Shown here in pieces: positions 12,720-17,285 of a DNA stretch of 64,000 nucleotides. The DNA lies in assembly GCA_030123585.1 (NCBI GenBank), contig CP126120.1, positions 1,465,254 to 1,529,253 of the forward strand, given 5' to 3'. The stretch is from Rhodanobacteraceae bacterium (GTDB taxonomy: Bacteria; Pseudomonadota; Gammaproteobacteria; Xanthomonadales; Rhodanobacteraceae). Below the pieces are notes generated by a model. The model did no database searches and was not told the origin of the DNA. It was given only the letters and a program-made list of their open reading frames with translations. Each line of letters starts with the position of its first letter. The stretch's first letter is position 1. Both the position numbers and the translations under genes were made by a program.

Positions 12720-15014
12720 ATGATCCGCCTGCGCAGCATAGACAGGTCGCACAAACTCATCCGGGCATCGATCTTCGCGCTGCTTCTGATCGCACTCCTG
12801 GCGCTGACGTGGTGGGTGTACCACCCGGGGCTTGCGGGCGATTTCCTGTTCGACGATTTCGCCAACCTGCCGGCGATCGGCGCGACCGGTCCGGTCACGC
12901 ACTGGGCGACGTTCTGGCGCTACATCACCTCGGGCACCGCCGATCCGACCGGGCGTCCGCTGACGCTGCTGACGTTCCTGATCGACGCGCGCAACTGGCC
13001 GGCCAGCCCGTATCCGTTCAAGGTCACCAACGTGATCCTGCACCTGATCAACGGCGCGCTGCTGGCGTGGGCGTTGTGGTGGTTGGGGACATTTCTTGCA
13101 AGAGGCTCTGCCACTTCGTCATTCCGGACGCCGCGCAGCGGCGATCCGGAATCGGTTTCGCGGGTGTACGCGGGCTGGAGCCTTGATGATACGGCAGGCG
13201 CCAAAACCGATTCCGGGTTCCGGCCTGCGGCCGGCCACGGAATGACGAATGAGGTTGGCGCGGCCGGCCACGGAATGACGAACGAGGTTGGCGCGGCCGG
13301 CCACGGAATGACGAATGAGGTTGGTGCGGCCGGCCCCGGAATGACGAATGAGGTTGGCGCGGCCGGCCCCGGAATGACGAATGATCGGAGAGGGTACGCC
13401 ATCGCCGCGCTGTTCGGCGCGGGCGCGTGGCTGCTGCATCCGCTGCTGGTGTCAACCACGCTGTACATCGTGCAGCGCGAGGCGATGCTGCCGGCAACCT
13501 TCGTGCTGATCGGCATGCTGGGCTGGATGGCCTCGCGCGAGGCGCTGGCGCGTGGGCACGTCAAGCGCGCGCTCGCGGGGATGGCGCTCTCGGCCTGGCT
13601 GTGCACGCTGCTCGCGGTGCTGTGCAAGGCCAACGGCGCGTTGCTGCCGCTGCTGTTGCTGCTGGCCGAATGGATCGTCTTGTCGCGCCGGCCCATGCCG
13701 TCGGCGCGCACGCAGCGCCAGCATCGTCGCGCGGTCGCGGTGTTCCTGGTGCTGCCCAGCGTGCTGGTGATCGCGTATCTGTTGTATCTGCTGCCGCGTT
13801 CGCTTGCCGCTCCGATCGCAGACCGCGGATGGAGTGCCGGCCAGCGCCTGCTGACCGAGCCGCGCGTCGTCACCGATTACCTGCGGCTGCTGTTCATTCC
13901 GCACGCGCATTCGACGGGGCTGTTCAACGATCAATTCGCGATCTCGAAAAACTGGCTTCACCCTGCCTCGACCCTTCCCTGCATCGCATTGATCCTCGTG
14001 CTGATCGGCGCCGGGTTCGCGCTGCGAAAGAAATATCCCGCGATCGCTTTGGCGCTGCTGTTCTACTTTGCGGCGCAACTGATGGAATCGGGCTGGATTC
14101 CGCTGGAGTTGTATTTCGAACATCGCAATTATTTGCCGGCGATGCTGCTGTTCTGGCCGATCGGATTGTGGCTGGGCAGGCCAGGCTCATTGCGATTCCT
14201 GCGCGTTGGGGCGGCGGCGCTGATCCTTGCCGTGCTGGCGACCCTGACCTTGCAACGGGCGACGCTGTGGGGCGATGGTTTCCGGCAGGCGCAGGTGTGG
14301 GCAGCCATCAATCCCGATTCGGCGCGCGCGCAGGCCAACGCTGCGTTGTATGACATGCAGCACGACCGGCCGCGCCTCGCGGCGGCACGTTTGCGCCTGT
14401 CGTTGCCGCGCCATCCCGACGACATCCAGGCGCCGATCAACCTGATCGGCGCAGAATGCAAATTGGGAGCGGTGCAGCCGCAGACGCTGGCGCGCGCGGA
14501 GTTCGCCCTGGCGCATACCCGCGTCGGCGGCCAGGCGGCATTCAACTGGTTCAACGAGGCATTGGACATGGCAAGCCACCACGCCTGCTCCGGCCTCGAC
14601 TTCGCCGCGTTGCAGGCGACCCTGGACGCCGCGCGGCGCAATCCGCGTTGGCAGGATCAACCAGGACGGCGGCAGGATCTGGATCACCTGCAAGGGGAAC
14701 TGGATTTGGCCGAAGGCAAACCGGATGCGGCGCTGCAGGCGTTCAACCGCGCGCTGGCGGCATCCTCCGATCCGGGCGCGGCGCTGCAACAGGCCGCCTA
14801 CCTCGGTGCGCACGGCTACCCACGTTTGGGACTCGACCATCTGGACTACTTCGACACGCTGCCGCCCGGCCCGAAACCCGGCGTCGGCATGCCGCGCATC
14901 CACGCGTGGGTGCTGCGCAAGCAAGGATGGTGGGAAACGGAGACCGCTTATCTGCGCAGGACGCTGGTGCAGGACGCCAAGGCAAAGGCCGCGAAGGACA
15001 CATCGGGCACCTGA
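12720..15014 (+). CDS. Polytopic GT-C-type glycosyltransferase with C-terminal TPR region (TMTC/DUF1736-like), paralog 1
   Basis: First-loop FDDFANLPAIG motif, FKVTNVILHLINGALL helix, many TM segments, and a TPR-like C-terminus. An alternative start exists at 12684. It contains a family A unit plus a 33-bp tandem repeat in frame. Confidence 0.65.
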   Translation: MIRLRSIDRSHKLIRASIFALLLIALLALTWWVYHPGLAGDFLFDDFANLPAIGATGPVTHWATFWRYITSGTADPTGRPLTLLTFLIDARNWPASPYPFKVTNVILHLINGALLAWALWWLGTFLARGSATSSFRTPRSGDPESVSRVYAGWSLDDTAGAKTDSGFRPAAGHGMTNEVGAAGHGMTNEVGAAGHGMTNEVGAAGPGMTNEVGAAGPGMTNDRRGYAIAALFGAGAWLLHPLLVSTTLYIVQREAMLPATFVLIGMLGWMASREALARGHVKRALAGMALSAWLCTLLAVLCKANGALLPLLLLLAEWIVLSRRPMPSARTQRQHRRAVAVFLVLPSVLVIAYLLYLLPRSLAAPIADRGWSAGQRLLTEPRVVTDYLRLLFIPHAHSTGLFNDQFAISKNWLHPASTLPCIALILVLIGAGFALRKKYPAIALALLFYFAAQLMESGWIPLELYFEHRNYLPAMLLFWPIGLWLGRPGSLRFLRVGAAALILAVLATLTLQRATLWGDGFRQAQVWAAINPDSARAQANAALYDMQHDRPRLAAARLRLSLPRHPDDIQAPINLIGAECKLGAVQPQTLARAEFALAHTRVGGQAAFNWFNEALDMASHHACSGLDFAALQATLDAARRNPRWQDQPGRRQDLDHLQGELDLAEGKPDAALQAFNRALAASSDPGAALQQAAYLGAHGYPRLGLDHLDYFDTLPPGPKPGVGMPRIHAWVLRKQGWWETETAYLRRTLVQDAKAKAAKDTSGT
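13118..13226. repeat. Family A unit inside the GT-C paralog 1 frame
   Basis: GTCATTCCGGACGCCGCGCAGCGGCGATCCGGAATCGGT ... ACCGATTCCGGGTTCCGGCCT. Confidence 0.8.
13227..13385. repeat. 33-bp tandem repeat, ~4.8 copies, in frame (AAGHGMTNEVG)n
   Basis: Units counted at 13227, 13260, 13293, 13326 and 13359 (partial). The unit is GCGGCCGGCC(A/C)CGGAATGACGAA(T/C)GAGGTTGG(C/T), derived from the right arm of the family A unit. Confidence 0.9.

Positions 15015-17285: not shown

Follow-up and report, generated by a model that had tools for sequence, protein, structure and literature searches.

A tandem pair of TfpW-like genes beside type IV pilin genes in a Rhodanobacteraceae bacterium: candidate pilin glycosyltransferases

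Two long tandem reading frames lie 3' of the major type IV pilin genes in a 64,000-nucleotide stretch of the genome of a Rhodanobacteraceae bacterium (assembly GCA_030123585.1, contig CP126120.1, positions 1,465,254 to 1,529,253; the whole stretch is referred to as the window), and they raise the question whether and how their products modify the pilin. Glycosylation of type IV pili guards against pilus-specific phages and shapes adhesion. To our knowledge, only two kinds of pilin glycosylation enzymes have been characterised, TfpO/PglL and TfpW, the latter essentially in one species. TfpW is encoded by group IV strains of Pseudomonas (para)aeruginosa (PSPA7_5160 in strain PA7; AAM52060.1) and is a pilin D-arabinofuranosyltransferase/oligosaccharyltransferase belonging to the C class of glycosyltransferases (GT-C). 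The first-pass annotation of the window proposed a new type of pilin O-glycosyltransferase which is analogous but not homologous to TfpW. Our analysis indicates a different placement: the two proteins, here named GTC1 and GTC2, appear to be best filed as TfpW-like pilin glycosyltransferases (GTs) in a new arrangement rather than as a new type. The finding itself is real and biologically coherent. The genes on which the argument is based are listed below.

9369..9809, + strand: type IVa major pilin gene 1, 146 amino acids (aa); Pfam Pilin 2.9e-24, N_methyl 1.9e-10
10338..10781, + strand: type IVa major pilin gene 2; Pfam Pilin 4.6e-24 and N_methyl; start codon ATG at 10338 after the ribosome-binding site AAGAGGAA
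12684..15014, + strand: GTC1, paralog 1 of the predicted GT-C proteins with tetratricopeptide repeats (TPR); 776 aa from 12684, 764 aa from 12720; FLFDDF motif and all family-invariant residues
15075..17285, + strand: GTC2, GT-C/TPR paralog 2; 736 aa; AlphaFold2 (AF2) model with a predicted local distance difference test (pLDDT) score of 89.9; 11 predicted transmembrane (TM) helices; TPR domain, residues 511-736, predicted outside
30519..31445, - strand: GT2 of the polyprenyl-phosphate sugar synthase class (GtrB/ArnC/AglJ-like); two hydrophobic helices at the C-terminus

Both reading frames are present as annotated earlier, and their products are paralogs (29% identity over 597 columns, E = 4e-48 in BLASTP). 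The public gene call starts GTC1 at 12720 (764 aa); we favour the ATG at 12684 because several orthologs also start with MLA(R/H). GTC1 carries the motifs FLFDDFANL and PFKVTNVILHLINGALL, GTC2 carries WVFDDYPNI and PFKVTNIVIHLINGVLL, so that the FDD(F/Y) and FKVTN...HLING motifs noted before were recovered in both proteins and are conserved. The GC content at third codon positions is 0.81-0.83 in both genes, the same as in the adjoining genes. Their nearest relatives are named after Rhodanobacteraceae, Dyella or Rhodanobacter.

Searched against 1.84 billion representatives, a profile hidden Markov model (HMM) of the family matched 44,089 clusters (50% identity) at E <= 1e-3; 6,584 of them reached E <= 1e-30. 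Nearly all of the best 150 clusters encode proteins of 640-690 aa, and members free of inserts have about 650 aa. Two subfamilies can be distinguished, GTC1-like sequences with FLFDDFANLPA and GTC2-like sequences with VFDDYPNIVD, and nearly every one of 148 representatives (clusters at 50% identity) has the motif PGLxGxF(L/V)FDD. In 147 members the residues D38, R75, W201, P205, Q216, R217, K271, Y377, W510, S527 and R529 are invariant, while D39 (at least 90%), H104, E453, E457, R459 and Y461 are nearly so. GTC1 and GTC2 both retain all of these, and therefore both look catalytic. Their C-terminal third can firmly be assigned to the TPR domains by profile comparison: the profile of 147 sequences matched an engineered TPR protein with E = 1.5e-28, the TPR domain of OGT with 1e-9 and PilF with 3e-7. 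In public databases the family is called "hypothetical protein" or "tetratricopeptide repeat protein". Two members carry the Joint Genome Institute (JGI) label "protein O-mannosyl-transferase", one distant member has a faint precomputed match to GT_STM0557_N, and ten representatives of 645-647 aa, near the size of TfpW, are all unnamed metagenomic proteins. No relatives on plasmids or viral contigs were found in either search, hence the family seems to be a trait of chromosomal pil loci.

Structure prediction depended on the depth of the input alignment. A first AF2 model built from 32 sequences reached a pLDDT of 64, and a second one from 147 diverse sequences a pLDDT of 89.9 and a predicted TM-score (pTM) of 0.90. 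Read against hydropathy and the distribution of K and R (positive-inside rule), the predicted helices place the N-terminus in the cytoplasm and the TPR domain (511-736) in the periplasm, with 11 TM helices between them. The predicted periplasmic loop 1 has 60 residues, with D38-D39 six residues past TM1 and three short helices following; loop 4 (351-406), between TM7 and TM8, is predicted to be periplasmic as well and to hold an amphipathic helix. The polytopic N-terminal domain with an acidic DD in its first outer loop, a feature of GT-C enzymes, and the C-terminal TPR are thus borne out by alignment, profile and predicted topology. Most invariant residues appear to lie in periplasmic loops or at the outer ends of helices, as expected of an active site facing the periplasm.

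Two stretches of the model have low confidence, about 128-186 and 290-324; both are in-frame insertions within loops predicted to be cytoplasmic. Within GTC1 a 33-bp unit is repeated 4.8 times in frame (13227-13384); it encodes five copies of AGHGMTNEVGA in predicted cytoplasmic loop 2. The core of this repeat has 11 matches compared with 0.07 expected, six of which are located outside GTC1 (5056, 5836, 5888, 7507, 18268 and 18436), namely at the rmlD-rmlC and rmlC-rmlA junctions, in the gap between rmlA and rmlB, and in the gap between toxin-antitoxin modules at 18150-18670. Dispersed copies of which some are inside GTC1 indicate that a repetitive extragenic palindromic (REP)-like element has invaded the coding sequence. 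Similar inserts are found in cytoplasmic loops 2 and 6 of GTC2, and orthologs range in length from 668 to 868 aa.

These features can be set beside the published description of TfpW (10.1101/2020.04.19.049825). TfpW has 646 aa, a cytoplasmic N-terminus, 11 TM helices, five loops in the periplasm and a large TPR domain on the same side, with the motifs DDX in loop 1 and Y-x6-P-F-x7-P in loop 4. Its best structural template is ArnT, and it interacts with itself in two-hybrid assays. The tfpW gene is located immediately 3' of pilA, and homologues lie beside pilA in Azotobacter, Acinetobacter, Teredinibacter, Kingella and P. indica (10.1101/2020.04.19.049825). The GTC family shares the DD of loop 1, an insert-free size of about 650 aa, the position downstream of pilA and, as predicted, the N-in topology, the 11 TM helices and the periplasmic TPR; by a weak match, ArnT is the nearest solved relative here too. 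Loop 4 contains Y377-x6-P384, in which Y is invariant and P is found in at least 90% of 147 members, the register relative to the TfpW motif being set by description only; the F and the second P of that motif are not conserved in the family. From the match of features, the family size and the linkage to pilins, GTC1 and GTC2 are likely to be homologous with TfpW. The statement that there is no homology with TfpW is therefore probably wrong, since nearly every described feature of TfpW is found here in a comparison by description. A new type of pilin O-glycosyltransferase is not supported either, because the same architecture and position were described for TfpW. What differs is the arrangement. 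In contrast to tfpW, two divergent tandem paralogs (29% identical) are present and kept as a pair, and a linked GT2 of the ArnC/GtrB class as well as a variable island of Wzx and GT genes are situated between the transferases and pilB.

The linkage to pilins was analysed across relatives by scanning one genome per species, which gave at least 579 relatives. Locus counts refer to the best 80 loci, which span Rhodanobacteraceae, Lysobacteraceae, Nevskiales (Solimonas, Nevskia, Stenotrophobium, Oceanococcus) and Halothiobacillus. One or two pilin genes on the same strand, not more than 3 kb 5' of the first GT-C gene, were found in 54 out of 65 loci with enough upstream sequence, and in most related loci the GT-C genes directly follow the pilins. 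The genes are commonly arranged as pilA(-pilA)-GTC1-GTC2-[variable glycan genes]-GT2-pilB. Among relatives that can be cultured, Dyella koreensis, Rhodanobacter sp. Soil772 and Frateuria terrea (loci L016, L017 and L076) carry this locus. By a first, span-based estimate, 51 of the 65 loci have two tandem GT-C genes and 4 have three. The genes between the GT-C pair and the GT2 differ from locus to locus; shared kinds are Wzx, DegT, ATP-grasp, methyltransferases, GT2 and GT4. The pattern extends to six distant metagenomic representatives (about 30-40% identity). Pfam Pilin genes are located immediately upstream in 4 of them and the upstream genes of the other 2 are cut off at the contig end, a second GT-C-sized gene without Pfam family follows in 3, and a glycosyltransferase-rich cluster lies downstream in 5. 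With 54 out of 65 loci and at least 4 out of 6 distant relatives, the functional link of the pair to pilins is supported more strongly than first noted.

It had also been suggested that two transferases beside two pilins reflect specialisation. An open reading frame (ORF)-based count of the 55 fully visible loci gave two pilins with two GT-C genes in 24 cases, one pilin with two GT-C genes in 17, two pilins with one GT-C gene in 4, and one of each in 3. Two GT-C genes are thus usual even beside a single pilin, which does not support one enzyme per pilin. In Xanthomonadaceae, a pair of adjacent major pilins is a lineage trait in any case (PMC9206674). In one of the distant loci (L094), a FimB/TfpY-like accessory gene (PF27166; 2643-3392, + strand) follows pilS-pilR and precedes two pilin and two GT-C genes. 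Accessory genes of the TfpY and TfpW types can therefore coexist in one pil locus.

Concerning the sugar donor, the GT2 at 30519-31445 had been described as GtrB/ArnC-like, which is right at the class level. Compared with E. coli ArnC it shows 31% identity (E = 1e-23). Among NCBIfam models, those for AglJ, dolichyl-phosphate hexose transferase, ArnC and PpgS match it best, but none of these matches reaches its curated cut-off. A GT2 of more than 55% identity is encoded 3' of the GT-C genes, generally adjoining pilB, in 28 out of 59 loci with enough flank. The linkage of an ArnC-class GT2 implies a donor other than D-arabinofuranose (D-Araf). Small ORFs beside the GT2 turned out to be a Phd/YefM antitoxin and a PIN fragment, and their reading as a GtrA/ArnEF flippase was rejected.

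We consider it likely that GTC1 and GTC2 are periplasm-facing, lipid-donor-dependent GTs of the TfpW kind which O-glycosylate the major pilin or pilins encoded upstream. Gene anatomy, predicted topology, motif invariance, TPR identity, pilin synteny and the class of the GT2 are the basis from which we infer catalysis, donor, acceptor, order of the steps and homology with TfpW. The GT2 would attach a sugar to undecaprenyl phosphate on the cytoplasmic side of the membrane, and the lipid-linked sugar would then be flipped, although the window did not yield a small flippase dedicated to this step. The variable GT/Wzx block may build a larger glycan in addition. The 11-helix domain would transfer the sugar to Ser or Thr of the pilin in the periplasm, before pilus assembly, using D38/D39 of loop 1 together with R75, R217, K271 and R459, conserved basic residues on the outward side of the membrane, while the periplasmic TPR domain would hold the pilin. 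GTC1 and GTC2 may act jointly, either in successive steps or as a heterodimer, and not one per pilin.

Several known systems follow a related logic. In ArnC/ArnT and GtrA/GtrB/GtrC, the undecaprenyl-phosphate sugar made by a GT2 is transferred in the periplasm by a polytopic GT-C protein, and both the GT2 and, weakly, the membrane domain resemble ArnC and ArnT/GT39, respectively. Unlike the pair studied here, these systems modify lipid A or O-antigen and act without a TPR domain, and they differ further in having ArnE/F or GtrA flippase genes. TfpO/PilO and PglL share the position beside pilA and the presumed outcome, an O-glycosylated pilin and possibly phage evasion, but they belong to an unrelated family with a Wzy_C domain, for which no Pfam match was obtained in GTC1 or GTC2. 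The architectural parallel drawn before was to the TMTC/DUF1736 enzymes. TMTC proteins have 11 TM helices, an N-in topology, a luminal TM7-TM8 loop with a small non-membrane helix and luminal TPR, and the human proteins match DUF1736 with E < 1e-30 (PMC7801869). GTC1 and GTC2 resemble TMTC1-4 and the PMT/POMT proteins in the 11 TM helices, the cytoplasmic N-terminus, the acidic pair in loop 1, the long outer TM7-TM8 loop with its short amphipathic helix and the non-cytoplasmic C-terminal TPR. The polyprenyl-phosphate monosaccharide donor of TMTC/PMT can be likened to the donor proposed here. Family membership did not hold: no Pfam match to DUF1736 (PF08409), PMT (PF02366) or PMT_2 (PF13231) was obtained for 32 members with a cut-off of E <= 1 or, with the cut-off relaxed to E <= 10, for the family consensus and nine other members, and in contrast to TMTC/PMT the proteins are bacterial and periplasmic with a pilin as presumed acceptor. 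The resemblance to TMTC is architectural only.

PMTs work as heterodimers of paralogs, to which the tandem GTC pair is a possible parallel. On a more far-reaching and doubtful proposal, GTC1 and GTC2 form an obligate heterodimer, as a bacterial counterpart of Pmt1-Pmt2 or POMT1-POMT2 with TMTC-like TPR, that starts pilin glycosylation from an undecaprenyl-phosphate hexose made by the GT2; the island would then give pilin glycans specific to each strain, which drive evasion of pilus phages across Xanthomonadales and related orders.

The alternatives to a transfer of single sugars to pilin depend on the surroundings of the pair, whose remaining features are as follows.

3866..8804, - strand: rmlD, rmlC, rmlA and rmlB (dTDP-rhamnose pathway), assigned by Pfam, upstream of the pilins
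10808..10830, + strand: terminator-like GC-rich hairpin with T run, directly 3' of pilin gene 2; a pattern match from a consensus scan
10950-11497, 11948-12648, 17345-18150, 18670-19343, 19873-20543 and 30043-30461 (the last on the - strand): six toxin-antitoxin modules or remnants in the pilA-pilB island
19298-19633, + strand: C-terminal fragment of a DegT-type aminotransferase
20652..21953, + strand: Wzx-type flippase (Polysacc_synt, Pfam 4.4e-10), recurring 3' of the GT-C genes in many related loci
22044..27850, no single strand assigned: low-GC glycan block (ATP-grasp, HAD, methyltransferase, DegT aminotransferase, GT2)
within 22044..27850, - strand: rhamnosyltransferase-like GT2 of the glycan block
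28572..30038, - strand: GT4 glycosyltransferase; Pfam Glyco_trans_1_4 1.8e-29 and Glyco_transf_4
32000..36144, + strand: pilB, pilC and pilD; Pfam T2SSE 1.4e-148, T2SSF 1.4e-63 and Peptidase_A24
36197-37969, + strand: EptA-like phosphoethanolamine transferase directly 3' of pilD; Pfam Sulfatase 6.9e-40, EptA_B_N 5.7e-8

In order, the locus consists of minor pilin genes (pilW/pilV-like), rmlDCAB on the - strand, the two pilins, the hairpin, two toxin-antitoxin modules, GTC1 and GTC2, followed by three toxin-antitoxin modules, the DegT fragment, Wzx, the low-GC block and the GT4, and then by the antitoxin with the PIN fragment, the GT2 on the - strand, pilB, pilC and pilD.

A number of results weigh against the proposed glycosyltransferase function, and part of them concern the fold of the membrane domain. 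No curated family model from Pfam or NCBIfam matched this domain in GTC1, GTC2 or 32 relatives, which gave weak TPR hits only; matches of the family consensus and nine distant members to GtrII (E = 0.26) and DUF6056 (E = 1.2) were at noise level and were dismissed. An HMM of the TM part did not match any of the PDB sequences. Foldseek with the pLDDT 64 model returned TPR matches only, and with the full-length pLDDT 89.9 model the best 50 hits were TPR proteins in PDB and BFVD alike, the query being the whole model including the TPR domain. Comparison with hhalign to E. coli ArnT alone, or to a shallow enterobacterial ArnT alignment, was not significant. A search with ArnT as query gave relatives that were all at least 76% identical; like E. 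coli ArnT, its relatives carry PF02366 and PF13231. A diverse ArnT/GT39 alignment of 13 sequences was assembled from plasmid records. Against this alignment the membrane domain scored 31.6 (P = 0.0029) over 140 collinear columns, with a probability of only 10.8%. The match pairs the invariant R75-P76 with the invariant K61-P62 of ArnT, and K271 with K179. Controls with reversed sequences reached scores of 19-24 (P = 0.04-0.14) over 42-47 columns. The match is suggestive but not decisive, and a GT-C fold of the membrane domain is plausible and weakly supported. The JGI label "protein O-mannosyl-transferase" of two members, the faint match of one member to GT_STM0557_N and the architecture shared with TMTC speak indirectly for such a fold.

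Further points against the proposed function come from the locus. GTC1 is located 1.9 kb 3' of pilin gene 2 with two toxin-antitoxin modules intervening. The terminator-like hairpin follows pilin gene 2; a hairpin placed in this way has also been reported downstream of pilins with accessory genes (PMC11841053). Eleven of the 65 judgeable loci lack an upstream pilin. Neither a GtrA/ArnEF-like flippase nor an initiating phosphoglycosyltransferase was found in the island. Finally, unlike in the TfpW system, the window contains no TfpX gene and no D-Araf genes (DprE1/DprE2/UbiA/GtrA); DprE1, DprE2 and UbiA were missing among all its scanned ORFs, including those of the whole pilA-pilB island. The D-Araf pathway genes are not linked to the tfpW locus in P. 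aeruginosa, and because of this their absence from 64 kb is weak evidence.

That Wzx and several cytoplasmic GTs separate the GT-C pair from pilB, in this window as in many related loci, could also mean that the variable block builds a lipid-linked oligosaccharide which Wzx flips and which the GT-C proteins move as a whole to the pilin. They would then be en-bloc O-oligosaccharyltransferases, comparable in function to TfpO/PglL but a different enzyme, and the conserved GT2 would serve another step, for example a side-branch. TfpW itself has been discussed both as a glycosyltransferase and as an oligosaccharyltransferase (10.1101/2020.04.19.049825), and two GT-C genes would fit one en-bloc transferase together with one enzyme adding a single sugar. 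We regard this as rather unlikely, since neither an initiating phosphoglycosyltransferase nor Wzy or Wzz was found in the island, and since the glycan block is low in GC and differs by locus whereas the conserved parts are the GT-C pair and the polyprenyl-phosphate GT2.

The same glycan genes bear on the question of the acceptor. The pair is flanked by rml genes, Wzx and several GTs, the island is rich in toxin-antitoxin modules and holds a low-GC block, like mobile glycan islands, and the combination of GT2 and GT-C is that of GtrB/GtrC and ArnC/ArnT. GTC1 and GTC2 might therefore modify the O-antigen of lipopolysaccharide (LPS) or another envelope glycan, in the manner of GtrABC or ArnT, and have entered the pil locus by insertion of a surface-glycan island, with which the 11 loci without upstream pilin would agree. 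Yet the GT-C genes stay directly 3' of pilins across several orders and in distant relatives while the glycan genes change, and a periplasmic TPR domain suggests a protein acceptor, as proposed for TfpW and TMTC; a target other than pilin thus seems improbable. Even less credible is a role without catalysis, for example as membrane-anchored TPR scaffolds for pilin stability or assembly. It would account for TPR being the only statistically firm domain assignment and would resemble TfpX/Y/Z, which act on assembly and not on glycosylation (PMC11841053). It would not explain why D38, R75, Q216, R217, K271 and other polar and charged residues at the outer face of a 500-residue membrane domain are invariant among 147 sequences with identities of about 25-30%, why the domain aligns weakly but collinearly with ArnT, or why sugar-donor genes are linked. 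Hence we retain O-glycosylation of pilin by both paralogs as the likely function.

A TfpW-like gene beside pilA is unsurprising as such. Worth following are the conserved pairing, the size of the unmodelled family and the hypervariable glycan island. A very large TfpW-like family without a Pfam or NCBIfam model of its membrane domain constitutes a gap in the domain databases. The close relatives examined are mostly located beside pilins across several gammaproteobacterial orders. In these lineages the pair is conserved and accompanied by a linked gene for a polyprenyl-phosphate sugar synthase and by a variable island. The locus therefore provides a tractable system for questions of donor and acceptor choice, of why two enzymes are kept, and of whether the second major pilin of Xanthomonadales is related to glycosylation.

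Exchange of glycan genes is suggested by several features of the island. GC content falls from about 65% to about 56% across 22000-28500, the region of the ATP-grasp, HAD, methyltransferase, DegT and GT2 genes, which suggests a recently acquired, exchangeable glycan cassette. The same kinds of genes recur after the GT-C pair in two of the distant loci (L094 and L099), and the DegT fragment is probably a remnant of an earlier gene set that was replaced. The toxin-antitoxin modules comprise MazF/PemK-like, several VapBC/PIN-like and Phd/YefM types, the last with a PIN fragment. Other genes are more stable: the GT4 is kept beside the GT2 at 44-73% identity in about a dozen loci, and rmlA/rmlB hold the same position in the four closest loci (L002, L007, L010 and L011).

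Phospho-forms are added to the pilin of Neisseria by PptA, which belongs to the same enzyme class as the EptA-like transferase downstream of pilD. The pilus locus may thus encode a second kind of pilin modification. Inside the pilC frame (33884-35155), ARAGORN called a 96-nucleotide tRNA-His with anticodon ATG (34028-34123, + strand), which is almost certainly a false positive. Further downstream, a POT/PTR2-family transporter is distributed over two adjacent ORFs (41543-42547 and 42560-43444, + strand) that match the N- and C-terminal halves of the model and may represent a frameshifted gene or a sequencing error.

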